Shown here: positions 39,634 to 53,131 of the stretch, piece by piece
Position numbering within the stretch: the stretch's first letter is position 1
How the letters are laid out: every line of letters starts with the position of its first letter
Assembly: GCA_963708185.1 (NCBI GenBank)
Contig: OY970195.1
Coordinates: 949,482 to 1,013,481, forward strand
Direction of reading: 5' to 3'
Source: Candidatus Peregrinibacteria bacterium
GTDB taxonomy: Bacteria > Patescibacteriota > Gracilibacteria > UBA1369
DNA: 64,000 nucleotides
Notes under the pieces: generated by a model
Told to the model about the DNA's origin: nothing
Databases searched by the model: none
Seen by the model: only the letters and a program-made list of their open reading frames with translations
Translations under genes and position numbers: made by a program

Positions 39634-40695
39634 TTAAACCTTTCTGCCTGACTTTTTGCCCTTCTTTCTGCGGAGAACGAGCAGTATTGCTCCCGCGCCG
39701 ATCAGTAACGCTCCGCCAGGCTGCTGTTCACTGTCACTCTGATGTGAAGAAGCAATGTAACAGCCGATGGTTTCGGGATGGTCGATATCAAGAGGGATTT
39801 TCAAAGGAGTGTCTCCTTTTTGAAGCGTGAACTGTTCCTGTCTGCCTTCCTGGGTAATCAACGACTGGCCTTCGACGGGAACGACCGACACGTAGTGCAT
39901 CTTTTTCCCGGTCGTTGCGTCGATTTCGGGAGCAAGATACTGGACGAGGACTTTCCCGTTCGTCACGATGTGAAGAGACGCTTCACCAAGCATGACTGTT
40001 TCGGTTTGAGAGTTGGCGGCGTCCTTCACCATTTCGACGCAAAGCTTTCCTTCCTTCATGTAAATCTTATTCTGATCATTGGGTGATCCGTAGACTTCTC
40101 CACGGATCTTCATAGCAGCCTCGGGAGCCCATGGTTGGGTCAAAAAGCAATCCCGGGGAATTCCCTGGCTGTCGAGAAGCGTGTGGCCGATAATGTGTGT
40201 GGTGCCGTCGGCATCTGCGACAAATTCACAGGGGTTGCCGTTGGATTGAGGAATCTTGTCTTTGGACAGATCCTGATCAAAGGATTCCGGCCCGCATAAA
40301 TCCTCCACGAGAGGAACACCTCCGTCGGTATCCAGAGCGTCGGTTGCGCCACCTTCCCCTGGGCCAGCCGGTGCCGGGCCGCCCATCGGATCGGGTTCGT
40401 CCGAATCGCGGTTTTTCCTGGCTTCTTCTTTTTTGTCTTTTTTCACCATGACCGGCGGAACACGCGGAGTTTTCGGTCCCTGCTTGTTCTCGTCAGATTC
40501 AGGCATTCTTTTGACTGCCGGGGGTGTCGTCGCGACGATAGCCGCCGTGGCAACGGCGGTCGCGATCATGAGCGGACGGCTGCTGGATCTTCCAGGTGCT
40601 CTGCTTTTTCGATCTTCCACCTCCGTGGCGGGAGGGGTTTCGTCGACATGATCTTCCAGCTGTGGGAGACCGTTTTCAGGTCGTTCGTTTGGCAT
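39634..40695 (-). CDS. Surface-protein candidate with N-terminal TM/signal anchor and C-terminal TM + Arg/Lys tail
   Basis: 353 aa. Disordered acidic/basic N-terminus, hydrophobic LMIATAVATAAIVATT, a Pro/Gly-rich linker and a Cys-containing beta-rich domain. The C-terminus is ..SEQQPGGALLIGAGAILLVLRRKKGKKSGRKV. Confidence 0.55.
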   Translation of the reverse strand: MPNERPENGLPQLEDHVDETPPATEVEDRKSRAPGRSSSRPLMIATAVATAAIVATTPPAVKRMPESDENKQGPKTPRVPPVMVKKDKKEEARKNRDSDEPDPMGGPAPAGPGEGGATDALDTDGGVPLVEDLCGPESFDQDLSKDKIPQSNGNPCEFVADADGTTHIIGHTLLDSQGIPRDCFLTQPWAPEAAMKIRGEVYGSPNDQNKIYMKEGKLCVEMVKDAANSQTETVMLGEASLHIVTNGKVLVQYLAPEIDATTGKKMHYVSVVPVEGQSLITQEGRQEQFTLQKGDTPLKIPLDIDHPETIGCYIASSHQSDSEQQPGGALLIGAGAILLVLRRKKGKKSGRKV

Positions 40696-40787
40696 GATTT
40701 GAACACAAAAGTTACGGTGGGATATTATAATGATTTTAGCTTGAAATGCAATGCGAAAAGTGTTAGTCTGCGGGTGGACATAACTGT

Positions 40788-41354
40788 ATGTTTATGGCCG
40801 ATCTTGGCAACCACAATGAGTTCATTCATGACGCTGCTCTCGAGCAGGCGGATTTCCGTGTGCCTGAAGCAACGCTTCATCCCGACAAAAAAATCGTCGG
40901 AAAACTGAGGAATTCGGTTGCCCGCGCGTTACTGGTCGCTGCACCGATGATCGCATCGTGCGGCGGGCAGGTTGATACCGTGGACTCTTTCCAGGGTGTC
41001 GGTGGAGCGCAGGCCGGCCAGACGACTGAAAATATGAATTTGCGTGACCATGAAGTGGTCGTTGACTGCAACCAGGGCGGTACATGGAGATTTCAGGGCA
41101 ACTATCCCGAAGATTTCAGCGTGGTGGTCAGCGTTGACGGCAAAGAGATTGCCACCAAAGAGGTTGTTGTTGACCATTCGATTGATCCTTCAACCCTCAA
41201 GCAATTTTCCGTGGAAGGCCCGGTAGGAAACGTGCAGGCAAAAAACGTTCAGGTCCAGACTTTTGACCTCGACGGCAACGTCATTCCCATTGAAAGTGAC
41301 CCCCAGACGAAAGGCATGTACGGCAATCCTGATTGCCCCGTGGGTTTGGAGTAA
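40788..41354 (+). CDS. Putative lipoprotein (start uncertain)
   Basis: It has the lipobox-like motif ALLVAAPMIASCGG, but this is preceded by ~50 residues in the longest ORF, so the real start may be a non-ATG codon further downstream. No family recognised. Confidence 0.45.
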   Translation: MFMADLGNHNEFIHDAALEQADFRVPEATLHPDKKIVGKLRNSVARALLVAAPMIASCGGQVDTVDSFQGVGGAQAGQTTENMNLRDHEVVVDCNQGGTWRFQGNYPEDFSVVVSVDGKEIATKEVVVDHSIDPSTLKQFSVEGPVGNVQAKNVQVQTFDLDGNVIPIESDPQTKGMYGNPDCPVGLE

Positions 41355-41355
41355 T

Positions 41356-43467
41356 TTATTTGGAAGTTTTTCTTGTGACACCGTTCCAGTCCGCTGGAGG
41401 CGGAAAATTTGAGTATATCTCGGAACGTTCAACATAAAGCTTTGTTGGTCCGTCGTCCGGATAAGCCTTGAGGATTTCTGTGAATTTTCCGTGGGCCTCT
41501 TTGAATTTTCGTGAGTGGAACAGAACCATGGCTTCATTATATTGCTGGAGGAGTTTCACGGCGTCCGCTGGCAATTCTCCTTTTGGAGCCAGCAGTTCGA
41601 ACACCTTGATCGGTTCGGTTTTCCCAACAACGAGGATGGTGTCAAGTTCGCGGGTCTCAAACTGGTCTTTAATGATGCCATACGTACTCTGACTCATCAT
41701 AATGTGCGTTTCGTACTCCTTGTTCTGGCTTTCCAGGCGCGCACCAAGATTCACCACGTCGCCGAGGGCCGTGTAGTCAAAACGTTCGGTCGATCCCATG
41801 TTCCCCACAATGGCTTCGCCCGAACTCAATCCGCAGCGGAAGTCAATTTCGGGCTTTGGTTCTCCGCCGGGAAGCGGCGGATCTTTTTTCCACTTTTCAA
41901 GAAGTTCGTTGAGCTTGAGGCGCATTTTGAGCGCCGCGCGAGCGGCGCGGACGGCATGATCCTGTTGCGACACCGGTGCGCCGAACAACGCCATGATTCC
42001 ATCCCCTTCAAACTTGTCCACCGTCCCGCCTTCTTCCATGATGACCCGGGACATGGCTTCGAAATACTCGCTGAGGAGGGCCACCACGCTCTGCGGTTTT
42101 AATTTTTCTTCGATAGTGGTGGAATGGGCGATGTCCGTGAACATCACGGTGATGTTGCGGCTTTCCCCGCCGAGTTTGAGGCTTTCCGGGTGCTCGGAAA
42201 TCTGTTTCACCAGCGCCGGATTCACGTACTTGCCGAAAGCTTTTTGCAGCTCGAGTTTTTCACGGAATTCCGTGACGTAGCGGTAGAGGTACACGGCGAT
42301 AAAGGTCACGGCGACGACAAGGTAGGGATGCACGAGGTCGGGAATGATTCCGATGTTAAAAAGCGGTTTTGCTGTGAACGAATAGGCGACCGGCACCCCA
42401 AAAAGGTAGAGCAGCGACCAGCGGATTTTGGTGAACATGAAGGTGAAGGCCGCGGTAAAGGCCAGGATCAGGATGAGCAAAGCCTGTTCCGGAAAGCTGA
42501 AATTGCGGAGAAATTTTTGTTCGAGAATAGTCTGGAGCGCGTTGGCGTGGATTTCGATGCCGGTCATCTGATCTTTTTTGCTCATCGGAGTGAGCTGGAA
42601 ATCCTTGAAATATGATGAAGTGGGACCTATGAGAACGATCTTGTCTTTGAAGAGTTTTTCGGGATCCGTTGAAGAGTAATTTTCATTATAAACGTCGACG
42701 AAAGGAATCGACGCGTAAGATTCCGTTCCCGGTTGCGTGGCATAGTTCACGTACATTTGTCCTTCCTGAAGCGGAATATTCACCGTGTTTCCGTTTTGTA
42801 GTTTGATCTGGTATTGGGTCGGAGACACCAAAGGAGTTGAAGGCTTATTTTGGGCGTTGAGTGCAATTCTGGCTATCGTTAAAGCAAAGCTTTCATAATA
42901 GGTTCCGTCGGGATTTACAAGAATCGGCAAAATTTTCCTGATGGCGTTATCCGCATCAGGGATAACCTTAGCCATACTGATTTTGATGTTTTCAAGTTGA
43001 TTGAAAAGATCGAGTGGCAGTTCAAACGGAAAAATATTCGGATCCTGGATGTAGTACCCTCTTTGGTCGTAGCTGGTGGATGATCCCCAGTAAATAATGA
43101 CTGGATTTTTGGTATTCTGGAGGGCTTCTTTGAACTGTTCATCTTTTTGTTGATCTTTGGCTGACTTGAAAAAGAAGTCGAACGCCACGACTTTCGGATT
43201 ATATTTATCAATATTGTTGAGTACCTTAGCAAAATTATCGCGCTGCCAGTTCTCGTAGGAACCGAGGCCTGTGCTGTCGCTTAATGATTTATCGTCGATG
43301 GTCACAACTGTTATATCGCTGCTCGGAGACCTTTGGCTATACAGCAAGTCTCCCAACCGCAACTGCCATGCAGCGAGCACATTAGTATATGCGAGAATTA
43401 ACGTTACGATTGCCGCAGTGGTTCCAAAAATGAGGGCAAACGCCTTTTTATTTTTGAGAAATTTCAT
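41356..43467 (-). CDS. CHASE2 sensor / class III adenylate-guanylate cyclase with C-terminal helical (TPR-like) tail
   Basis: CHASE2 motif DITVVTIDDKSL..NWQRDNFAKVL..VVAFDFFF, then 3 TM segments. The cyclase core is ITVMFTDIAHSTTIEEKL..KFEGDGIMALFGAP..VNLGARLES. The start is set at ATG 43467 (MKFLKNKK). Confidence 0.85.
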   Translation of the reverse strand: MKFLKNKKAFALIFGTTAAIVTLILAYTNVLAAWQLRLGDLLYSQRSPSSDITVVTIDDKSLSDSTGLGSYENWQRDNFAKVLNNIDKYNPKVVAFDFFFKSAKDQQKDEQFKEALQNTKNPVIIYWGSSTSYDQRGYYIQDPNIFPFELPLDLFNQLENIKISMAKVIPDADNAIRKILPILVNPDGTYYESFALTIARIALNAQNKPSTPLVSPTQYQIKLQNGNTVNIPLQEGQMYVNYATQPGTESYASIPFVDVYNENYSSTDPEKLFKDKIVLIGPTSSYFKDFQLTPMSKKDQMTGIEIHANALQTILEQKFLRNFSFPEQALLILILAFTAAFTFMFTKIRWSLLYLFGVPVAYSFTAKPLFNIGIIPDLVHPYLVVAVTFIAVYLYRYVTEFREKLELQKAFGKYVNPALVKQISEHPESLKLGGESRNITVMFTDIAHSTTIEEKLKPQSVVALLSEYFEAMSRVIMEEGGTVDKFEGDGIMALFGAPVSQQDHAVRAARAALKMRLKLNELLEKWKKDPPLPGGEPKPEIDFRCGLSSGEAIVGNMGSTERFDYTALGDVVNLGARLESQNKEYETHIMMSQSTYGIIKDQFETRELDTILVVGKTEPIKVFELLAPKGELPADAVKLLQQYNEAMVLFHSRKFKEAHGKFTEILKAYPDDGPTKLYVERSEIYSNFPPPADWNGVTRKTSK

Positions 43468-43476
43468 ACAACGCAA

Positions 43477-43508
43477 AAAGTGCTTTTATCCGTTTATTAT
43501 AGCACTTT
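43477..43508 (-). terminator. Candidate terminator after paralog C
   Basis: An 8-bp stem (AAAGTGCT paired with AGCACTTT) with a 16-nt loop. On the minus strand the 3' arm runs into TTTTT. Confidence 0.45.
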
Positions 43509-43530
43509 TCAGGGTTTTCTTCCAGTTCTT

Positions 43531-45306
43531 TTAAGCCTTTTTTCTGCTTTTTCGGCGGGTAATCACCGCACCAAGTCCGGCCGCCATTAACAGCAGAGCC
43601 ATATTGTTTGCCGTATGATCCTGGACTTCCGTACAGGAACAGCCCGGGTCCTGCACTGGCGGAACGGTTTTGAATTTCTTGGGATCGTCAGCGACTTCTC
43701 CGGTGCTCAATTCACGATACATCGTTACACCAGCTGGAATAAGCCCTTTTTCACTTGAACCGGGAGCTGTGAAATCTACCGGATTGCAGTTATTCACTGT
43801 GGCATTTGTTGGTGTACAGTTTTGATCATAGGCGCGTTGTGCGCCTTCAACGGTTGTATAAGCAACAATGTCGAACTGTCCTTTCGCTTTGTTGGGGTTA
43901 AGAGAATCTGGGTAGGTAACTGTTGTGTGTGTTCCTTCAAAGCCAAGGGTTATACCACTTTCATTACTGATAATTTTATCGGCTTCTGTTGGCGGTTCAC
44001 TGTCTTCATGGGCCAGGCCGATTGAGACCTCAGACATATTTGGCTCAGAAAAATTGAAACTGCCCTGACCCTCGGTAAAGTTGAAGGTTTTATTGCCGAT
44101 CTGGACGGTTGCCGGTCCTTGCACCTGGGCATTGAGCTGGGTATCCGAACAGTCTTTGATCGTGATGTTTTCCGGATTATTGGTTACTTGGGCAAAGCAA
44201 CCCGGAGCGCCACCGTCACCGCCGGCGCCACCGTCAGAGCCACCACCTCCGTCGGTTCCCGCGTCTCCACCTGCGCCATCCGTTCCTGCATCGGTAGTGC
44301 CTGTTTTCATCGTCGCCCATTTGATTGTGCCGTTGTCTCCATACCACAGGTCTCCGGAGCTATCTTTGAATAATGTTCCCTGGGTGTTCGCGTCATTCAC
44401 TGTGGCGCTTCCTGAAATTGCATTCAGGTTCGTCACTCCGCCTGAACAGTTTGTTCCGTTCCAGCCTCCGTTATAGACCATTAAATCCAGACTCCCCAAT
44501 GTTCCTGTTCGGTCTGAACCTACATAAAAATCGTTCGTGTCTACGAAAATTCCATAGGTATCTTTCGTCAAATCGCTGCAGCTTGTTAATTCGCTCCATG
44601 TCCATGTCCCGATCACCGCTGTGTGGATTCTCTTATTGCTGCTTGAGATATCCGAACTTGCATAAATGTTCGTTCCTCCACTGTCGCATGCCACATTGTT
44701 CACGTTCGCTCCATCGTCATTTAATGTCCCGGGCACTGCTGCTAAACCGCTCACCACTCCACCTGACCATGTTCCTTCGTACAACTTACTGGAGAGACCA
44801 TCTCTTTCAGATACTACATAGGCTTTCCCTCCACACACTTTGAAATCAAATTCATTAAAACCTGAATTTGCTCCAGATACCGGGGTCAACGTTGGGCTGT
44901 TCCATGTCGCCCCTCCGTCCGATGAACCTATTTTTTTTATGTCCCCACTTTCAACTATGTACAACGTGATATTTGGTCCAGATCTTTCTACATAGGCTAT
45001 GTTTGCATTTACACCCAAACTCGGTACCGTCGGGGAATTCCACCCGCTCGCTAACGCTTCACTCGTTTGTCCAAGACGTTCCTGTCCGTTGCCCGACTCG
45101 CAACCCTGGAGGGCTGGAGGCAATAATGCCCCAAACGTCACTCCTCCGGCCAACAATAAAGCATTGCGGATGGCTTTGCGTCCTGCAAACGGTTGTAAAA
45201 TATTTTGACGATCAGATTTTTGGGTACGGGATACTTCTTTGTTCTCCGGGCTCCCGCTGAGTCGGTCTTTTGCCATAAGGGGAAAGGTAAAAGAAGTGGT
45301 GTCCAT
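43531..45306 (-). CDS. Tandem surface lipoprotein paralog C (Asp-box beta-rich domain, Gly/Asp linker, C-terminal sorting-like tail)
   Basis: The start is set at ATG 45306 (MDTTSFTF..), 5 nt after the stop of paralog B. Features: lipobox-like ALQGC, Asp-box SSDGGATW, and C-terminus ..PGCSCTEVQDHTANNMALLLMAAGLGAVITRRKSRKKA. Confidence 0.8.
   Translation of the reverse strand: MDTTSFTFPLMAKDRLSGSPENKEVSRTQKSDRQNILQPFAGRKAIRNALLLAGGVTFGALLPPALQGCESGNGQERLGQTSEALASGWNSPTVPSLGVNANIAYVERSGPNITLYIVESGDIKKIGSSDGGATWNSPTLTPVSGANSGFNEFDFKVCGGKAYVVSERDGLSSKLYEGTWSGGVVSGLAAVPGTLNDDGANVNNVACDSGGTNIYASSDISSSNKRIHTAVIGTWTWSELTSCSDLTKDTYGIFVDTNDFYVGSDRTGTLGSLDLMVYNGGWNGTNCSGGVTNLNAISGSATVNDANTQGTLFKDSSGDLWYGDNGTIKWATMKTGTTDAGTDGAGGDAGTDGGGGSDGGAGGDGGAPGCFAQVTNNPENITIKDCSDTQLNAQVQGPATVQIGNKTFNFTEGQGSFNFSEPNMSEVSIGLAHEDSEPPTEADKIISNESGITLGFEGTHTTVTYPDSLNPNKAKGQFDIVAYTTVEGAQRAYDQNCTPTNATVNNCNPVDFTAPGSSEKGLIPAGVTMYRELSTGEVADDPKKFKTVPPVQDPGCSCTEVQDHTANNMALLLMAAGLGAVITRRKSRKKA
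44341..45093. repeat. 753-bp block in paralog C, near-identical to 48263..49015 in paralog A
   Basis: Compared line by line at offset 3922. I saw one mismatch (45070 t versus 48992 c). Confidence 0.85.
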
Positions 45307-45614
45307 CTTGTTTAATCCTTTTTGCGGCGGCGCATTACAGACGCAAGGCCGAGCGCCAAGAGGATGAAACTCAAATTGTTGCGGGTTGAACCAACGTGAT
45401 CGGAAACCGAGCATCCTCCGCCGTTATCCGTGTTACTTTGGACGGGGGGAAGGGTGTTGAATTTGCTTGGATCATCGGCAAGTTTGCCGGTGGCAAGTTC
45501 ACGGTACATCGTGGTTCCGGCAGGAATCTCGCCTTTTTCAGATGAACTCTGAGCCGTGAAATCTACGGGAGTACAGTTCGCCACTGAGTTATTCTCCGGT
45601 TTGCAGGTGTTGTC
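45098..45614. repeat. 517-bp direct repeat, copy 1 (3' end of B + spacer + 5' leader of C)
   Basis: Identical by eye to 46990..47506 at offset 1892. The boundaries were found at mismatches 45097/46989 and 45615/47507. Confidence 0.85.
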
Positions 45615-47198
45615 ATAGGCCCGCTGTGCGCCTTCAACGGTGGTATAGGCTACCACTGCAAAGTTTCCGCTGGCTTTGTCGGGATTGAGGTTGTCGGGAT
45701 AGGTGACCGATGTTTTCGTCCCTTCGTACCCTAGCCATAGACCGTGCTGGTTATCGATAATTTTATCCGATTCAGAGGTAGGTTCACTCCCTTCGTAGGC
45801 GACTCCTGTTGAAAACTGAACAAAGTTTGGTTCAGCGAAACCAAATGTTCCGCTTCCTTCGGTGACTTTGAAAACCTTATTGCCAATGGCAATGGTCGTT
45901 GGAGCGCTCACATGTGCACTGACCGTTGTTGCGTTGCAGCTATCAATATTGAAATTTTCAGGATGATCAGTCGCTTTGGCAAAACAGTCGACGGGTTTTC
46001 CGGCGTCCATGCCGCCCGTGCCGGCATCTGAGCCACCCATTCCTGCGTCACTGCCTCCCATGCCTGCATCGCTTCCGCCTGCTCCCGCATCTGTTCCACC
46101 TTGGCCTCCAGCGTCTGAACCGCCGATACCTCCATCTGCGCCGCCTGTTCCGCTATCGGTACCGCCATCAGGCATACCTGTTTTCATCGTTGCCCATTTG
46201 ATCGTGCCGTTGTCTCCATACCACAGGTCTCCGGAGCTATCTTTGAATAATGTTCCCTGGGTGTTCGCGTCATTCACTGTGGCGCTTCCTGAAATTGCAT
46301 TCAGGTTCGTCACTCCGCCTGAACAGTTTGTTCCGTTCCAGCCTCCGTTATAGACCATTAAATCCAGACTCCCCAATGTTCCTGTTCGGTCTGAACCTAC
46401 ATAAAAATCGTTCGTGTCTACGAAAATTCCATAGGTATCTTTCGTCAAATCGCTGCAGCTTGTTAATTCGCTCCATGTCCATGTTCCAATATCAGCTGTG
46501 CGAATTCGATAGTTCGAAGTTACAGCATTTGACGTTGCGTACATTTTTGTTCCACTGCTGTCGCATGCGATATTATTCACATTCGAAAAATCATCATTCA
46601 ATGCTCCAGGAACTGCAGCCAATCCACTCACAACTCCCCCTGACCATGTCCCTTCATAGAGCTTAAATGATAATCCGTCTTTTGCTGAAACAACGTATGC
46701 TTTCCCTCCGCACACTTTAAAATCTTCTTCATCTTGAACTGAATTGGCACCTGTTACTGGTGTCGGTGATGGGCTATTCCAATTTATTCCGTCCGTTGTT
46801 CCTACTTTCTTGATGTCATAATTCCCTCCGGAATCGTTCACCACATAGAGCGTGATGTTTGATCCTGCTCTCTCCACATAGGCTATATTCGTATTCCCTG
46901 AAAGTCCCAAACTTGGCGTCGCCGGGGAATTCCACCCGCTCGCTAACGCTTCACTCGTTTGTCCAAGACGTTCCCACCCTTGCCCCGGTTCGCAACCCTG
47001 GAGGGCTGGAGGCAATAATGCCCCAAACGTCACTCCTCCGGCCAACAATAAAGCATTGCGGATGGCTTTGCGTCCTGCAAACGGTTGTAAAATATTTTGA
47101 CGATCAGATTTTTGGGTACGGGATACTTCTTTGTTCTCCGGGCTCCCGCTGAGTCGGTCTTTTGCCATAAGGGGAAAGGTAAAAGAAGTGGTGTCCAT
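45312..47198 (-). CDS. Tandem surface lipoprotein paralog B
   Basis: The start is set at ATG 47198. It has the same leader as C, a diverged first half of the beta-rich domain, and C-terminus ..NGGGCSVSDHVGSTRNNLSFILLALGLASVMRRRKKD. Confidence 0.8.
   Translation of the reverse strand: MDTTSFTFPLMAKDRLSGSPENKEVSRTQKSDRQNILQPFAGRKAIRNALLLAGGVTFGALLPPALQGCEPGQGWERLGQTSEALASGWNSPATPSLGLSGNTNIAYVERAGSNITLYVVNDSGGNYDIKKVGTTDGINWNSPSPTPVTGANSVQDEEDFKVCGGKAYVVSAKDGLSFKLYEGTWSGGVVSGLAAVPGALNDDFSNVNNIACDSSGTKMYATSNAVTSNYRIRTADIGTWTWSELTSCSDLTKDTYGIFVDTNDFYVGSDRTGTLGSLDLMVYNGGWNGTNCSGGVTNLNAISGSATVNDANTQGTLFKDSSGDLWYGDNGTIKWATMKTGMPDGGTDSGTGGADGGIGGSDAGGQGGTDAGAGGSDAGMGGSDAGMGGSDAGTGGMDAGKPVDCFAKATDHPENFNIDSCNATTVSAHVSAPTTIAIGNKVFKVTEGSGTFGFAEPNFVQFSTGVAYEGSEPTSESDKIIDNQHGLWLGYEGTKTSVTYPDNLNPDKASGNFAVVAYTTVEGAQRAYDNTCKPENNSVANCTPVDFTAQSSSEKGEIPAGTTMYRELATGKLADDPSKFNTLPPVQSNTDNGGGCSVSDHVGSTRNNLSFILLALGLASVMRRRKKD
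46218..46484. repeat. 267-bp core identical in all three paralogs (= 44341..44607 = 48263..48529)
   Basis: Compared by eye. Identity ends sharply at 46484/44607, where B diverges from A and C. Confidence 0.8.
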
Positions 47199-47506
47199 CT
47201 TGTTTAATCCTTTTTGCGGCGGCGCATTACAGACGCAAGGCCGAGCGCCAAGAGGATGAAACTCAAATTGTTGCGGGTTGAACCAACGTGATCGGAAACC
47301 GAGCATCCTCCGCCGTTATCCGTGTTACTTTGGACGGGGGGAAGGGTGTTGAATTTGCTTGGATCATCGGCAAGTTTGCCGGTGGCAAGTTCACGGTACA
47401 TCGTGGTTCCGGCAGGAATCTCGCCTTTTTCAGATGAACTCTGAGCCGTGAAATCTACGGGAGTACAGTTCGCCACTGAGTTATTCTCCGGTTTGCAGGT
47501 GTTGTC
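46990..47506. repeat. 517-bp direct repeat, copy 2 (3' end of A + spacer + 5' leader of B)
   Basis: Partner of 45098..45614. Confidence 0.85.
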
Positions 47507-49216
47507 GTAAGCGCGTTGGGATCCTTCAACCGTGGTGTAGGCGACAACCGCAAAGTTGCCGCTGGCTTTGTCGGGATTGAGGGTGTCCGGATAGGTGACG
47601 GTTGTTTTGGTACCTTCAAAACCAAGTGTAATGCCATGTTCGTTACTGATAATTTTATCGGCTTCAGTTGGCGGTTCACTCGCTTGATAGGCAACGCCTG
47701 TTGAAAACTGCATCAGGTTTGGTTCAGCGAAACCAAATGTTCCGCTTCCTTCGGTGACGGTGAAAACCTTATTGCCAACAGCAATGGTTGTTGGAGCGGA
47801 AACATGGGCCGTCACGGTCATTGCATCGCAGCTGTCTACCTGGAAATTTTCAGGATGATCAGTCGCTTTGGCAAAACAGTCGACGGGTTTTCCGGCGTCC
47901 ATGCCGCCCGTGCCGGCATCTGAGCCACCCATTCCTGCGTCACTGCCTCCCATGCCTGCATCGCTTCCGCCTGCTCCCGCATCTGTTCCACCCATTCCGG
48001 CGTCACTGCCTCCCATACCTGCATCGCTTCCGCCTGCTCCCGCATCTGTTCCACCTTGGCCTCCAGCGTCTGATCCACCGAGACCTCCATCCATTCCTCC
48101 CTGTCCTCCTGCATCTGAGCCGCCGAGTCCTCCGTCAGAGCCACCTTGGCCGCCAGCGTCCGAACCGCCGATACCTCCATCTGCGCCGCCTGTTCCGCTA
48201 TCGGTACCGCCATCAGGCATACCTGTTTTCATCGTTGCCCATTTGATCGTGCCGTTGTCTCCATACCACAGGTCTCCGGAGCTATCTTTGAATAATGTTC
48301 CCTGGGTGTTCGCGTCATTCACTGTGGCGCTTCCTGAAATTGCATTCAGGTTCGTCACTCCGCCTGAACAGTTTGTTCCGTTCCAGCCTCCGTTATAGAC
48401 CATTAAATCCAGACTCCCCAATGTTCCTGTTCGGTCTGAACCTACATAAAAATCGTTCGTGTCTACGAAAATTCCATAGGTATCTTTCGTCAAATCGCTG
48501 CAGCTTGTTAATTCGCTCCATGTCCATGTCCCGATCACCGCTGTGTGGATTCTCTTATTGCTGCTTGAGATATCCGAACTTGCATAAATGTTCGTTCCTC
48601 CACTGTCGCATGCCACATTGTTCACGTTCGCTCCATCGTCATTTAATGTCCCGGGCACTGCTGCTAAACCGCTCACCACTCCACCTGACCATGTTCCTTC
48701 GTACAACTTACTGGAGAGACCATCTCTTTCAGATACTACATAGGCTTTCCCTCCACACACTTTGAAATCAAATTCATTAAAACCTGAATTTGCTCCAGAT
48801 ACCGGGGTCAACGTTGGGCTGTTCCATGTCGCCCCTCCGTCCGATGAACCTATTTTTTTTATGTCCCCACTTTCAACTATGTACAACGTGATATTTGGTC
48901 CAGATCTTTCTACATAGGCTATGTTTGCATTTACACCCAAACTCGGTACCGTCGGGGAATTCCACCCGCTCGCTAACGCTTCACTCGTTTGCCCAAGACG
49001 TTCCTGTCCGTTGCCACTTTCCGAACTACACCCTTGCAGCATGGCCAGTGTTCCCGTGGAACCGCTGAACAAGCCTAAACCTCCTGCTAAAAGTAAAGCA
49101 TTTCTTATTCTGCCGCTGGTCGCTGTTTTGCCTTTTTCCAGAGCTTTTTGGGCTCGTACTGAACTTGAAGAAACTTCTTTGTTTTCTGATCCACCTTGAG
49201 GTCGATTAATCGCCAT
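47204..49216 (-). CDS. Tandem surface lipoprotein paralog A (longest Gly/Asp repeat)
   Basis: 670 aa with its own leader (MAINRPQGG.. AMLQGC). The beta-rich domain is identical to C and the C-terminal end is identical to B. Confidence 0.8.
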   Translation of the reverse strand: MAINRPQGGSENKEVSSSSVRAQKALEKGKTATSGRIRNALLLAGGLGLFSGSTGTLAMLQGCSSESGNGQERLGQTSEALASGWNSPTVPSLGVNANIAYVERSGPNITLYIVESGDIKKIGSSDGGATWNSPTLTPVSGANSGFNEFDFKVCGGKAYVVSERDGLSSKLYEGTWSGGVVSGLAAVPGTLNDDGANVNNVACDSGGTNIYASSDISSSNKRIHTAVIGTWTWSELTSCSDLTKDTYGIFVDTNDFYVGSDRTGTLGSLDLMVYNGGWNGTNCSGGVTNLNAISGSATVNDANTQGTLFKDSSGDLWYGDNGTIKWATMKTGMPDGGTDSGTGGADGGIGGSDAGGQGGSDGGLGGSDAGGQGGMDGGLGGSDAGGQGGTDAGAGGSDAGMGGSDAGMGGTDAGAGGSDAGMGGSDAGMGGSDAGTGGMDAGKPVDCFAKATDHPENFQVDSCDAMTVTAHVSAPTTIAVGNKVFTVTEGSGTFGFAEPNLMQFSTGVAYQASEPPTEADKIISNEHGITLGFEGTKTTVTYPDTLNPDKASGNFAVVAYTTVEGSQRAYDNTCKPENNSVANCTPVDFTAQSSSEKGEIPAGTTMYRELATGKLADDPSKFNTLPPVQSNTDNGGGCSVSDHVGSTRNNLSFILLALGLASVMRRRKKD
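47896..48226. repeat. In-frame coding tandem repeat (21/24-nt units; GGSDAGM / GGSDAGGQ / GGSDGGL)
   Basis: This region of paralog A is 153 nt longer than the homologous region of B (about 46004..46178). The alignment offset changes from 1892 to 2045 across it. The C linker (about 44195..44290) is shorter again. Confidence 0.8.
48263..49015. repeat. 753-bp block in paralog A, partner of 44341..45093
   Basis: See the partner entry. The first 267 bp are also shared with B (46218..46484). Confidence 0.85.
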
Positions 49217-49300: not shown

Positions 49301-50527
49301 TTATTGCTGAATAACGTATTGGAGCAAGCCGGCTTCCTGGGGGTTTTTGACTTCAAGAACCTGCTTGAAAGTTCCGGAGTATCCTTCCGCGGTAATCGTT
49401 TGAGATGTATCAGTGGGTGCTGAAGGAAGCGTTGAATCCGTTATGATTTGGTATTCAAGATAAGGTATTTTGCCTGCGCCGTACTCATCGAGGCTGTGGA
49501 TAGCCGAAAGCTTAAATACCGGTTTTGTGATGCCCTGTGCGCTCCAATTTGGTGCAGGAGGACAGCCGAATGTTATGCTATCAACGTTCGTTAAAAATTT
49601 GATGATCGATCCTCTACAGTTTTGAAGATCTAATCCGAAACTAGATTGTGATACGACGCTAAAACCCGCCCCTTCAGCATTGTTAATCTTGCCCTCGTGG
49701 ATGACTGATGTGTTTAAATTCCAAGCTGGTGGAATTGCTACAGCGTTAAATGAAAAATACGGTCCCAATGCATAGTTCTTACTCCCATCCGATGATTCTC
49801 CCGTAATCTGCCAGGAAACGATGGGGTCGTCATGATTATATTTCGGATCACCATTTGACGTGTCTAAATTCGGACGAGGGCTGCAGATAATATTCCCGTC
49901 TGTACATCCCGTTCTTACTCTTAAGGTAAAAGTCTGGCTTTGAGAGTTGAAAATGTTATGTGGGCCAGTTGCATCGGTATAGTAGAGCGGGATTGCGACG
50001 CTTTCGCCGACTTTGAGCTTGTTCCAGTTGCAGGGGTTGTCTTTTGGATCGGCGTATTGCACGGAGGTTCCGCCCGGGTCGGAGGAGTACACCAGTTTTG
50101 TATCGGGGTCGTACCAAAAAGGATCTTTTGTATCCGGATTGAGCGCGTCGCAGTTGGCGCCTATGTCGCCTGTTCCAGGTGTGGGGATGCCGTAACTGCC
50201 GTCCAAATATTTGGTGCTGACCGGCACCTGTCCCGAAATGCTGTAGTTTGAGGTCGGCTGCTTGGTTGATACTGTGGTTGTGCCAACGGTGTAGCCCGCT
50301 CCCTGATTCTGATTGGCCAGAAGCCCTTCTTCGAGAGCTCCTTCCGCGGCATAATACGCCTGGTTGGCGCCGGTGACGTTGGCGGATTCACGGATCGAGG
50401 AGACCACGACCGTGGTCACGCCCAAAGAGACCAGCACGATGATGGTGGTGAGTCCGAGCGCTACCAGCAGCGATGTTCCCGGCTTGGTTGAACGCGCAAA
50501 TTTTCGGAGGAAATTTTTATAAGGCAT
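49301..50527 (-). CDS. PilX-N-like pseudopilin / type IV pilus-associated protein
   Basis: 408 aa. The N-terminus KPGTSLLVALGLTTIIVLVSLGVTTVVVSSIRESANVTGANQAYYAAEGALEEGLL matches the PilX_N pattern (hydrophobic helix, then ..A.YAAEAGLE..). The rest is beta-rich. Confidence 0.55.
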   Translation of the reverse strand: MPYKNFLRKFARSTKPGTSLLVALGLTTIIVLVSLGVTTVVVSSIRESANVTGANQAYYAAEGALEEGLLANQNQGAGYTVGTTTVSTKQPTSNYSISGQVPVSTKYLDGSYGIPTPGTGDIGANCDALNPDTKDPFWYDPDTKLVYSSDPGGTSVQYADPKDNPCNWNKLKVGESVAIPLYYTDATGPHNIFNSQSQTFTLRVRTGCTDGNIICSPRPNLDTSNGDPKYNHDDPIVSWQITGESSDGSKNYALGPYFSFNAVAIPPAWNLNTSVIHEGKINNAEGAGFSVVSQSSFGLDLQNCRGSIIKFLTNVDSITFGCPPAPNWSAQGITKPVFKLSAIHSLDEYGAGKIPYLEYQIITDSTLPSAPTDTSQTITAEGYSGTFKQVLEVKNPQEAGLLQYVIQQ

Positions 50528-50773: not shown

Positions 50774-53131
50774 TCACGGTGCCGGTCGAATACATACACG
50801 AAGACTGGGAACACGAAGCCGGCGAGAGGACCTCGCCCTCACCCCCGCTCCATTCACGGAACCGTAACCGCTGATGTAGGAAACCGAAAACGTCCTCCAC
50901 GGCGTACAGGTGTCACCGGAATTTCCGGTGTAGGTGTCGCCGAGTTGAGGGGTGTGGTTGTCGTCGGTAAGGATGGTTTTGTAGCTGTTGCTAAAACTTC
51001 CTCCCTGCTTGCAGACATTGTACTTCCAGGTGGAACCCGAAACCTGTTGTACAGCGATGCAAAGCGTTGGACCATTGGGGTTGGTGTAGCAAGCGGGGCT
51101 GCTGCTTGCCAAAAACACGTCCTGGCACTGTTGCTGGGGCGGGACGGAGCATGTACTCCAGCCGCTCCAAAAACAGCTGCTCTGACAGGTTCGGGTTTGG
51201 GTTCCGTTCGTGTTGCAGGACTGGTTCTGGGTCTGACCGGGGGGGCAAACGCCCTGATTGAGGCATGAGCTCCACTGGCCGTTCTGGTTACACGTAGCAG
51301 TCCCGCAGTTCCCGCAGACAGCGGTTTGGCCTGCGCTGCAGACGGGTGGCGATCCTCCGGTTCCTGAACCGCTCCCGTTGCCGGATGAACCGCCCGACCC
51401 CCCGCTACCACCGGAACCGCTGCTTCCCGGGGTCCCTCCGCTGCCTGAGCTTCCGCCCGATCCGCTGGTATCCAGATAGCAGGTCCCCGTTTGGATGTCG
51501 CAGAGCGTTCCCGGTCCGCAATATCCGCCGCAGGGGTCGTTGTTTCCACTTCCGGACGATCCCGCGCCGCCTCCGGTTCCGCCGCTGCTTGCGGTCCCAC
51601 CAGAACCAGTGGAGTTGCCGCTTCCTGCACTTCCGCCGGTTCCTTGATCTCCCCCTTCGTAACCGCCGCCTGCGGGGCAGACGTTGGTTTCGCTGGGGAT
51701 GCAAGCCGGGACTTCGTAGCACTGGCTCGTTGCGGGATCACAAAAGAAACCTTCGGGACAGGACAGGTAACTGCACGGACCCAAGGCTTCATCATCAATC
51801 TGCCGGGCTCCTTCACTGATCCATTTGGCGATCTCCTCCCGTTTGATGGGGTTGTTGGGGTAAAAATCCGACTGCACTTGGACGAGCCCTTTTTGCGCAC
51901 CATAGTACACAAAGGGAGCATACCAGTCGCCGGGGTTCACGTCCTGGAACTGGCCCAGGAGTTGCGTTGCTGCGGCCTTCTGAGCCTTCCAGATGAAGTT
52001 ATCGTAGAGTTCGAGAAACTCCGCGGAATGGAAGCTGAGGATGACCATTTTGAGGGCCTGGGCTCGGGTAACCGGATCGTCGGGATGGAAGTAACGGAGC
52101 CCTCCAATCACACTCGCATCCCTGTTGATGACCGGATACCTGGAAGGGTAAACGGCGAGGGCTTCGATATACGGCTCATCGGAATCGGCTGCCGGAACAT
52201 CCGTGAACGTGGGGAGAGCGGGCACTGCGTCATACTGCCGAGCTGCAATCTTCAGCCACCGGGCCGCTTCCCTGCGCGTGACGTTTTGACCTGCGCCGTA
52301 GCGCCCGTCAAACAGTCCAAACTCGATACCGCGGTGGCGGACGTCGAGCACGTAGGGCAGTGACCAGGCATAATCCGGCAAATTCCCGCCAAACTGGTAG
52401 TCGCTGAACGTGTCTTCGAGAACACCTTCCGGATCGAGATTCTTGGCGATCTTGCTGTCATCGCCGAAGGTGTAGCCATATCCAAGAACGGCAAGGACGC
52501 CGCTTTGCATGGCCTTCTTCAGCTCCTTGAGGTTCTTCCAGCGGCGAATACCGAAATGAAGATGGGTACCCGTCACATTGCCGGTGTTTCCTTCCTTTCC
52601 GATGACGTCACCGGTATTCACGGTCTCACAGGCGTTGAACTTCCGACTGGTTTTGTTCGTCGACGTGTCGTAGTGCATGTGGTGATAGTGGTAGGTGATG
52701 ATTTCGTCGGAAAAGGCGTTGGCGCGGGTGGCAATGACGATGGTTTCACCCCACTTGTGAGAGTCGTCCTGGCCCAATGACATGACGACAAATCCATCCT
52801 GAACCGACGTAATGTCATTGATGCCCGGGGTGTGACTGGAATTGACCAGATCCAATCCATCATGGCCGTAGAGCCATTTCCCGTTGGACGAGTAGCCCTC
52901 GTCATAGGAGGTATCGTACCCCTGACTGACCTCATGCGGAGAGAAGGGCTGTTGCATGTTTTCCACCAGCCTCTCCACGACAGGGATGTCGGTAAGATTT
53001 ATAGTGGTGCACATACCGCTCGTGATGAACTTTTCCATTCCTCCGTCACCCGCGTTCGCCGTAGAGGCGAACGCGGCCAAGGACATGGTCGCCAAAACAA
53101 GCAGCAACTTGAAAAGTCGATGCGCTTTCAT
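50774..53131 (-). CDS. Secreted M23 (LytM-type) peptidase with three SLH-like domains, Gly/Ser linkers and Cys-rich C-terminal modules
   Basis: Signal peptide ..AAFASTANA, with SD AAGGAG 7 nt upstream. M23 motifs HDGLDL and GNTGNVTGTHLHFGIRR. SLH-like repeats are FTDVPAADSDEPYIEAL.., FQDVNPGDWYAPFVYYGA..IKREEIAKWI. The C-terminal part is Cys-rich and includes CFWSGWSTCS. Confidence 0.8.
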   Translation of the reverse strand: MKAHRLFKLLLVLATMSLAAFASTANAGDGGMEKFITSGMCTTINLTDIPVVERLVENMQQPFSPHEVSQGYDTSYDEGYSSNGKWLYGHDGLDLVNSSHTPGINDITSVQDGFVVMSLGQDDSHKWGETIVIATRANAFSDEIITYHYHHMHYDTSTNKTSRKFNACETVNTGDVIGKEGNTGNVTGTHLHFGIRRWKNLKELKKAMQSGVLAVLGYGYTFGDDSKIAKNLDPEGVLEDTFSDYQFGGNLPDYAWSLPYVLDVRHRGIEFGLFDGRYGAGQNVTRREAARWLKIAARQYDAVPALPTFTDVPAADSDEPYIEALAVYPSRYPVINRDASVIGGLRYFHPDDPVTRAQALKMVILSFHSAEFLELYDNFIWKAQKAAATQLLGQFQDVNPGDWYAPFVYYGAQKGLVQVQSDFYPNNPIKREEIAKWISEGARQIDDEALGPCSYLSCPEGFFCDPATSQCYEVPACIPSETNVCPAGGGYEGGDQGTGGSAGSGNSTGSGGTASSGGTGGGAGSSGSGNNDPCGGYCGPGTLCDIQTGTCYLDTSGSGGSSGSGGTPGSSGSGGSGGSGGSSGNGSGSGTGGSPPVCSAGQTAVCGNCGTATCNQNGQWSSCLNQGVCPPGQTQNQSCNTNGTQTRTCQSSCFWSGWSTCSVPPQQQCQDVFLASSSPACYTNPNGPTLCIAVQQVSGSTWKYNVCKQGGSFSNSYKTILTDDNHTPQLGDTYTGNSGDTCTPWRTFSVSYISGYGSVNGAGVRARSSRRLRVPSLRVCIRPAP

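Follow-up and report, generated by a model that had tools for sequence, protein, structure and literature searches.

Four neighbouring genes in a 64,000-nucleotide stretch of a Candidatus Peregrinibacteria genome (assembly GCA_963708185.1, contig OY970195.1, positions 949,482 to 1,013,481 of the forward strand; this whole stretch is called the window below) encode surface proteins that end in a tail built around a Cys residue. The tail resembles the MYXO-CTERM signal, lies outside the range described for that class, occurs without a cognate enzyme and is tied to a minor-pilin operon of a pilus. It runs from Gly-Cys-[Ser/Asn/Gly] over a polar spacer (7-15 residues) and a helix (~14-19 residues) to an RRR/K cluster. 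We consider, with about an even chance of being right, that it is a lineage-specific, myxosortase-independent C-terminal sorting or loading signal of the Cys type, anchoring proteins of a pilus operon for modification of the Cys and for hand-over to a type IV filament machine. This reading builds on what was observed: the motif, its profile link to MYXO-CTERM, its conservation over unrelated protein bodies, its fixed position in a pilin operon and the enzyme inventory of the genome. The definition of a C-terminal sorting signal normally includes the enzyme that processes it, and a MYXO-CTERM-like tail proves near-universal in this order of ultra-small, probably host-dependent bacteria.

The Cys tail and its relation to MYXO-CTERM

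The window belongs to a closed 1.437-Mb contig (49.8% G+C) that is estimated to be 99% complete. The four open reading frames (ORFs) all lie on the minus strand and end in Gly-Cys, a polar spacer, an uncharged helix (~14-19 residues) and an Arg/Lys cluster. The genes and their tails are as follows, with scores from a tail hidden Markov model (HMM) where available.

39634-40695, minus strand: protein of 353 amino acids (aa) that has a hydrophobic anchor at its N-terminus and a Cys tail of the long-spacer variant
39637..39774, minus strand: Cys tail of the protein of 353 aa, ETIGCYIASSHQSDSEQQPGGALLIGAGAILLVLRRKKGKKSGRKV; 13.8 bits with MYXO-CTERM (cut-off 20)
43531..45306, minus strand: paralog C; the ORF extends to 45414 and the likely start is 45306 or 45276; GCSC variant of the tail
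43534..43665, minus strand: Cys tail of paralog C, VPPVQDPGCSCTEVQDHTANNMALLLMAAGLGAVITRRKSRKKA; tail HMM 59-60.5 bits in the genome and 64.9 bits order-wide
45312..47198, minus strand: paralog B, with the architecture of paralog A; the ORF extends to 47306 and the likely start is 47198 or 47168; 53.8-55.4 bits
45315..45437, minus strand: Cys tail of paralog B, identical to that of A by sequence comparison
47204..49216, minus strand: paralog A, 670 aa; tail HMM 53.8 bits
47207..47329, minus strand: Cys tail of paralog A, SNTDNGGGCSVSDHVGSTRNNLSFILLALGLASVMRRRKKD; 60.3 bits order-wide; MYXO-CTERM 8.1-9.2 bits against 20

The first-pass annotation, made from the letters of the window, had reported these four C-termini and likened them to signals removed by dedicated sorting enzymes. 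They are reproduced letter for letter at these coordinates (..PGCSCTEVQDHTANNMALLLMAAGLGAVITRRKSRKKA in paralog C; ..NGGGCSVSDHVGSTRNNLSFILLALGLASVMRRRKKD, shared by paralogs A and B), and the tripartite layout that it described is real and conserved, both in the four window proteins and in 29 aligned relatives. The tails carry no LPXTG or PEP motif, as had been stated. In paralog A the order of elements is a lipobox-like ..AMLQGC, a beta-rich domain with an Asp-box (SSDGGATW), a Gly/Asp repeat linker, a C-terminal domain and the Cys tail. At their longest, the ORFs of B and C reach ~100 nucleotides into the gene upstream; comparison with A (MAINRPQGGSENKEVS) places the true starts at MDTTSF or MAKDRL (~47198/47168 in B, 45306/45276 in C).

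The paralogs also form a mosaic. In its N-terminal half A is almost identical to C, and in its C-terminal half and tail it matches B without a difference; upstream, a stretch of ~100 codons is the same in B and C, and the length of the Gly/Asp linker varies between the copies. The pattern suggests that the tandem copies have recently undergone recombination or gene conversion.

A search of paralog B against 5.8 billion proteins returned just the three paralogs of the window and one 448-aa fragment, P0004, so that no deep alignment of the paralogs was possible; no related locus of paralog B was confirmed among the genome contigs. In P0004, the sole outside homologue, the body is 37% identical to the paralogs and the tail is nearly unchanged (SSGGCSVNGHVDNTRNELGLLFMGLGIAAAVMRRRKQD). 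A crude genome-wide screen of 6542 ORFs for C-terminal tails of the helix-plus-basic type left six credible cases in 1.44 Mb, four of them within this 10-kb stretch. An HMM of the 29 relatives' tails gives paralogs A-C 54-60 bits, and nothing in the rest of the genome exceeds 16 bits. The ORF screen, this HMM and the tail of P0004 together argue that the pattern in the window is more than chance.

The 353-aa protein has no homology to paralogs A-C, and in its tail the HMM matches the helix and basic part only (14.7-18.8 bits). Its grouping with the paralogs is nevertheless borne out by its orthologues, which keep G-C-[YVI]-[IV], a spacer of 14-18 aa, the helix and RRRK (for example ..NSGGCVV.., ..INGGCYI.. 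and ..HTGCIV..).

We compared the window proteins and the isolated tails with the NCBIfam and Pfam models. Every CTERM model stayed below its cut-off, with matches mostly to the helix and basic part. JDVT-CTERM gave 17-19 bits on the window tails and their relatives (17.2 in the window; cut-off 27) and PEP-CTERM 11.6-13.2 bits over the helix only (cut-off 16). Loki-CTERM, the best known model for the tail of paralog C, reached 16.9 bits over the helix part only (cut-off 19.9). Sortase-signal models likewise matched the helix and basic part only, below their cut-offs.

A profile built from three tail sequences gave many matches in the 151 genomes (91 genera) of the window's order, with one recurring pattern (..DGGCSVTRTPEETSNGILAAFAALGIAGLIRRRQKQD, ..DPGCGCSTPGQATDDTRSALLALGLLGAAVALRRRRREENV, ..PGGCSCSAGNNSNNSTSLPLLFSALALALLWRRRNRVR). 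In an alignment of 29 such tails, chosen partly on the G-C motif, the Cys is present in all 29, a C-x-C in nine, and the residue that follows the Cys is Ser in 19, Asn in six, Gly in three and Ala in one. The second residue after the Cys is often Val or another Cys. The spacer from the Cys to the helix measures 7-15 residues (median 12) and the hydrophobic run 11-19 residues (median 14).

Scanned singly, 24 of these 29 tails matched the MYXO-CTERM model TIGR03901 at E<=10 and 12 matched TIGR03382, the model GC_trans_RRR (cut-offs 20 bits for TIGR03901.2 and 15.85 bits for TIGR03382). Seven of the ten relatives' tails tested passed the TIGR03901.2 cut-off, with 20.6-38 bits over approximately the whole 34-position model. 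The likeness to MYXO-CTERM, which the first-pass annotation had proposed, is thus right at the profile level, since relatives pass the cut-off of the curated model. Its word 'unassigned' suits the window copies, which miss all models (MYXO-CTERM 8-14 bits), but not the relatives, which match a defined CTERM model, an outcome that the annotation had listed as refuting its proposal. On sequence, the window copies appear to be diverged members of a class whose better-kept members would be annotated as MYXO-CTERM.

A fixed slot for unrelated proteins

Clustering of all ORFs from 20 fetched loci and the window (21 loci) placed the tail gene in a recurrent neighbourhood, one that the first-pass annotation had missed, whose neighbouring-gene homologues carry the source labels Candidatus Peregrinibacteria or Gracilibacteria. 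The further members of this module in the window are:

40788..41354, plus strand: small secreted protein of 188 aa with a lipobox-like ..MIASCGG, a module member in the window's family
41356..43476, minus strand: membrane protein with a CHASE2 sensor fused to an adenylate/guanylate cyclase (PF05226 173.9 bits, PF00211 83.6 bits), the next gene of the module
49301..50527, minus strand: minor pseudopilin, tip-type and PilX/GspK-like, whose gene is the one next upstream of the paralogs with the tail

In 16 of the 21 loci the tail gene has a member of the PilX-like family (49301-50527 in the window) as a neighbour, and homologues of the CHASE2 cyclase occur in ten, in most of them after the tail gene. 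Gene maps show the PilX-like gene immediately upstream on the same strand, the cyclase often immediately downstream and two or three prepilin genes further upstream. The fuller operon of relatives reads pilinA-pilinB-pilinC (N_methyl PF07963, 28.5 bits)-PilX-like-tail gene-cyclase. Over the whole order, 62 of 118 tail matches share a contig with a strong PilX-like match, and 52 of these 62 lie no more than 8 kb downstream of the PilX-like gene on the same strand (median 2.2 kb). The PilX-like family itself is present in 144 of the 151 genomes. Outside the order we found three full-length PilX-like genes, none of them followed by a Cys-tail gene.

The tail is therefore no general tag; it marks the protein or proteins in the slot directly after the tip-pilin gene. 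This slot belongs to a second minor-pilin operon, in which the cyclase usually comes next and, in the window's family, a smaller Cys-tailed protein as well. The 188-aa protein keeps the same neighbours in three relatives' loci (L022, L026 and L041) and found no family match in Pfam/NCBIfam-type scans. Conservation of the CHASE2 cyclase in many families of the order suggests that cyclic-nucleotide signalling is coupled to the pilus-associated surface protein. The slot after a tip pseudopilin links tail-anchored proteins to type IV filaments, a link known in Myxococcus and Vibrio only from dependence on the secretion system of type II (T2SS). It also points to the proteins that are most likely to be shown on or near pili, which have been implicated in host attachment.

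An HMM of the 29 aligned tails, termed A2, was used for the order-wide counts (E<=0.01). It matches in 82 of the 151 genomes and 52 of the 91 genera, with one to four matches per genome, nearly always at the extreme C-terminus of ORFs of 500-1000 aa. In 15 of 16 informative genomes that the HMM missed, the slot gene ends in a more diverged Cys, helix and basic tail, with motifs such as GSCGAC, GCPGCS, ESCD, GFCS, TCGC, EDCGC, GVCGC and TGCEC. Given these diverged tails, we take the tail to be approximately universal for the slot and the 82 of 151 to reflect a limit of sensitivity. No real A2 match was found outside the order in a sample of 401 genomes across the phylum. The range of MYXO-CTERM has been stated as Myxococcota and Bradymonadales (Haft, 2023, preprint 10.1101/2023.06.07.544157). 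Among the matches listed in our literature search there was no report of MYXO-CTERM in the candidate phyla radiation.

The bodies to which the tail is joined differ widely. When 23 tail proteins were shortened by their last 50 residues, BLASTP sorted them into at least 13 mutually unrelated clusters. After trimming of both ends, hhalign comparison of the groups, with shallow profiles, gave a probability of 1.2% or less in 15 of 16 pairs and 26% in the remaining one. The number of Cys residues in the body is even in 18 of the 23 proteins, so that the tail Cys is the unpaired one in most of them. Unrelated proteins in one slot suggest a swappable adhesin cassette, which bears on host range and surface variation.

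One might suppose instead that these genes descend from a single fast-evolving family whose C-terminus is slower to diverge and has no signal function. They are positional orthologues in the same slot after the PilX-like gene, surface proteins may diverge past recognition, and the hhalign profiles are shallow. The tail is, however, also carried by the unrelated 353-aa family and by small Cys-tailed proteins of other families within the module (loci L026, L055 and L063), and one tail gene (locus L028) lies far from any pilin gene. A low-complexity tail that outlasts 600 structured residues argues for direct selection on the tail, and we judge common descent alone to be quite improbable.

The product of the gene at L028 (G009:C2, ~307-310 kb) has 904 aa, 50 cysteines in its body and a Cys tail. 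The gene lies ~35 kb away from the closest PilX-like gene, without a pilin gene beside it, and that genome's slot protein is a paralogue of its product; the tail can thus travel with a duplicated gene.

At their N-termini paralogs A, B and C carry LQGC, a lipobox-like motif in which the Gln at -2 is atypical of the consensus [LVI][ASTVI][GAS]C; orthologues read LQGC, IQGC, TQGC, AQGC or VTGC at this position. The first-pass annotation had the three paralogs anchored at both ends as encoded, unless one end is processed. For the three paralogs the lipobox-like motif is there, and Lgt and LspA are encoded in the genome; the anchor of the 353-aa protein, on the other hand, is a plain hydrophobic helix, and a lipobox is not general in the class. 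The N-termini of tail proteins are mixed, either lipobox-like or, in many relatives, ordinary signal peptides of the A-x-A type. Anchoring at both ends is for this reason a trait of the window's family and not of the tail class.

Besides several degenerate Asp-boxes the paralogs have a perfect one (SSDGGATW). At this motif the profile of the family weakly matches the exo-alpha-sialidase 7mhu_A (E 0.0014), and two family members match the PD40 propeller repeat. From these sequence matches an N-terminal beta-propeller is likely.

Enzyme inventory and a proposed pathway

No sorting enzyme is encoded within the window, in agreement with the first-pass annotation. Searches of the closed genome found no match at E<=1 to the rhomboid family (PF01694; 14 of 14 control genomes were positive) or to the CPBP/Rce1-like family (PF02517), and none to the exosortase/archaeosortase family (PF09721). 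An order-specific CPBP HMM, run on the genome with filters off (--max), reached a best E of 1.1. Rhombosortase and exosortase were accordingly rejected as processing enzymes, no gene for either having been found in the genome. The genome does encode two Lgt paralogues, at 734936-735754 (plus strand) and 308538-309335 (minus strand), one of which scores 233 bits, together with one LspA (102 bits) and one prepilin peptidase PilD (54.5 bits, Pfam search). Multiple copies of Lgt have been noted for Peribacter (PMC4736985). The gene contexts of both Lgt genes and of LspA show no link to the pilin/tail module. The second Lgt is a candidate modifier of the C-terminal Cys to which its gene context lends no support.

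The first-pass annotation had held that its proposal would fall if the tail were confined to the paralog family and no processing enzyme existed. None of the known cognate enzymes (CPBP, rhomboid, exosortase) is in the genome; the tail, for its part, is not limited to one paralog family, though it is limited to one gene module. As some closed genomes carry the tail but no CPBP protease, either another enzyme acts or the tail works without cleavage.

One sortase is encoded (PF04203 101 bits, TIGR01076 72.8 bits), no class-specific NCBIfam model passes for it, and the genome has no other known sorting transpeptidase. A sortase of non-LPXTG specificity could in principle cut near Gly-Cys and attach the proteins to the cell wall, and both sortase (148 of 151 genomes) and the tail module are near-universal in the order. 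This near-universality, though, makes the co-occurrence uninformative, as it does not discriminate. The order also has sortase-type tails of its own, LPKTGPE and LTETGPG directly before the helix in relatives' loci L020 and L021, and these, with a TKSGPE on a 734-aa protein of the genome, are the natural substrates. The Cys tails have no motif of the Pro-x-Thr-Gly type, and their motif stands 7-15 residues from the helix. We hold this explanation to be highly improbable. The 734-aa protein (501411-503615, plus strand), with its degenerate TKSGPE and the end ..TKSGPELLWVLAGSGLFGGALKKLRRKKKK, is the genome's only candidate sortase substrate.

The pathway that we favour for the sorting or loading signal would begin with export by Sec, directed by an N-terminal lipobox or signal peptide. 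As a stop-transfer anchor, the helix and Arg cluster of the tail would then keep the C-terminus in the cytoplasmic membrane, and the odd Cys, placed by its flexible spacer on the membrane's outer side, would be modified, most likely by acylation, for which two Lgt paralogues are available. The helix would either be kept or be cut by a protease other than CPBP, rhomboid or exosortase. Finally, the type IV filament machine, primed by the adjacent set of minor pilins, would take the protein to or beyond the cell wall and S-layer. For this last step there is a parallel in MYXO-CTERM and GlyGly-CTERM proteins, which depend on the T2SS pseudopilus.

The model proposed for MYXO-CTERM comprises export by Sec, a helix that serves as anchor, lipidation of the Cys (predicted, with Lgt as the leading candidate), cleavage and transfer by the T2SS, and an uncleaved MYXO-CTERM protein still partly reaches the surface (Sah et al., 2025, PMC11980579). 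The myxosortases of that system are MrtX, MrtC and MrtP (10.1101/2023.06.07.544157; PMC11980579). The window system fits the opening steps of the model and its last one, without the protease. The two share the tripartite layout, an invariant Cys, GCxC doublets (GCSC, GCGC, GCNC), an uncharged helix and an Arg-rich end, as well as a connection to type IV filaments, which is the T2SS in Myxococcus and a minor-pilin operon, by genomic association, here. They differ in that the present host is a member of the Peregrinibacteria with no CPBP or myxosortase, that the spacer is longer, that one to four copies sit in one slot whereas MYXO-CTERM is found on 3-73 scattered proteins, and that an envelope with SLH domains offers no evident outer-membrane transport step.

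A CPBP/Rce1-like protease is, to our knowledge, the partner of each of the four Cys-type signals described so far. JDVT-CTERM resembles the present tail in its invariant Cys, helix, Arg cluster, low copy number and dedicated gene neighbourhood; its CPBP protease is encoded next door, whereas here the neighbour is a pseudopilin and there is no CPBP. LPXTG/sortase signals are likewise tripartite, and a sortase is present in the genome, but the Cys tails have no LPXTG-like motif and a different distance from motif to helix, and the order has separate tails of the LPKTGPE type. The GlyGly-CTERM/rhombosortase and PEP-CTERM/exosortase systems share the tripartite layout, and GlyGly-CTERM cargo is also T2SS-dependent; their signature motifs are absent here (as is PGF), and there is no rhomboid, exosortase or archaeosortase.

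Type IVa minor-pilin/PilY1 modules, such as fimU-pilVWXY1E of Pseudomonas and the PilY1 clusters of Myxococcus, combine minor pilins and a tip pilin with a large propeller-type protein. The window module is alike in having minor pilins, a tip pilin lacking Glu5, a large, beta-rich and probably propeller-bearing non-pilin and a cyclic-nucleotide connection, a likeness of gene order alone. PilY1 differs in having no C-terminal helix or Cys tail, and the present analysis shows no similarity of the window proteins to PilY1 in sequence or fold.

A simpler explanation is that the tail is a permanent C-terminal membrane anchor of a type I protein, in which Gly-Cys is kept for a disulfide, for metal binding or for contact with the pilus platform or the cyclase, with no cleavage or lipidation. 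The genome has no dedicated sorting protease, the one to four copies per genome always occur in the same module, as would befit a machine part rather than a tag, membrane partners are always present in that module, and some of the diverged tails lose the Gly or shift the Cys. Yet a plain anchor has no need for an invariant Cys and a small residue on a low-complexity spacer across dissimilar bodies, and seven of ten relatives pass a curated sorting-signal model over its full length. Moreover, the four conserved Cys residues of the PilX-like partner are even in number and leave no obvious free partner Cys. We regard the plain anchor as the main rival, a real but doubtful possibility.

We also considered a bolder form of the loading idea, in which the Cys tail is the loading signal of an undescribed, myxosortase-independent pathway that lets the pilus tip complex collect membrane-tethered adhesins, one exchangeable for another. 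Through its helix or a lipidated Cys the tail would keep the cargo close to the growing pilus, and it would let unrelated proteins swap into the slot. In that case cargo and filament would be coupled in an older and general way, with the T2SS dependence of MYXO-CTERM and GlyGly-CTERM as a single instance, and bacteria of the candidate phyla radiation would display host-contact proteins in this way. We advance this tentatively and think it rather unlikely.

A number of points weigh against the favoured sorting or loading signal. The window tails themselves score 8.1-13.8 bits with MYXO-CTERM (cut-off 20), and a short pattern of Cys, helix and Arg can arise by convergence, so that homology with the myxobacterial signal is not proven. 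CPBP, the only enzyme family known to process Cys-type tails, is absent from the closed genome. Among the 151 genomes of the order CPBP was found in 96, and its presence follows that of the tail no better than chance (tail and CPBP 53, tail alone 29, CPBP alone 43, neither 26; odds ratio 1.1, p=0.87); the co-occurrence that the first-pass annotation had suggested looking for was thus not found. Three single-contig genomes have the tail but no CPBP. The CPBPs that relatives do encode are generic, with 30-38 bits against the cut-off of 100 bits of the myxosortase core model (Mrt_core, NF040914). For this family CPBP is rejected as the partner of the tail on account of its absence from the genome, the lack of co-occurrence and the generic nature of the relatives' copies. 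The low copy number and single slot could mean that conservation reflects contacts with the pilus machine or the cyclase and not a sorting enzyme. Lipidation by Lgt meets the inverted topology noted by the myxosortase authors. The PilY1-like tip-adhesin character of the paralogs is suggested by gene order and a weak Asp-box/propeller signal, and an AlphaFold2 (AF2) prediction for paralog C failed (four-sequence alignment, predicted local distance difference test score, pLDDT, 37.6). Modification of the Cys, cleavage and hand-over to the pilus are steps that we infer, and processing has been observed for none of these proteins.

The tip pseudopilin and other pilus genes

The PilX-like protein of the window has the features of a type IV pilin-like protein: a basic leader ending in Gly, an N-terminal helix, a globular head and synteny with N_methyl pilins. 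Its leader reads ..KPG|TSLLVALGL.., with no Glu at position 5; the corresponding sites of the accompanying pilins are G|FTLVE, G|FTLAE and A|ESLVE. The window copy is below threshold for PilX_N (E=0.019) and GspK (E=0.0074); several homologues carry PF14341 (noted for two) or have been named PilX by JGI and NCBI. Four cysteines and the signatures C-N-W-N-K and P-Y-L-E-Y-Q are conserved. A disulfide between the tail Cys and the PilX-like protein was considered and is unsupported, the four conserved Cys of the latter being an even number.

An AF2 model of the PilX-like protein (88 sequences, pLDDT 93, predicted template modelling score, pTM, 0.85) has an N-terminal helix of 58 residues (residues 18-75) followed by a beta-rich head. 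A Foldseek search of this model against the PDB gave no match (best E 0.026, TM<=0.17), and a PDB search with the sequence profile was also empty; given the Foldseek result we assign neither the GspK nor the PilX fold. The predicted head may represent an undescribed pilin head fold.

In the window genome the pilinA-B-C genes lie at genome positions 748077-750741, apart from the PilX-like gene. A separate main pilus locus at ~191.7-197.7 kb includes PilC. The pilus machine is represented by PilC/T2SSF (164 bits) and, by motif only, by T2SSE-type ATPases. At the main pilus locus the PilX-like gene appears as two overlapping ORFs (196496-197509 and 197278-197742, plus strand), which may be due to a frameshift or a sequencing error.

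The PilX-like gene of the window has as its close upstream neighbour, at 50774-53131 on the minus strand, the gene for an M23 peptidase with SLH domains (PF00395, 51.8 bits), and the genome from the same genus has this arrangement too. It indicates an envelope of the S-layer/SLH type.

Pilin matches in five genomes of the same class (G560, G588, G608, G616 and G640) contain two to five in-frame TGA codons, as expected for recoded Gracilibacteria (TGA = Gly); the window's order shows none.

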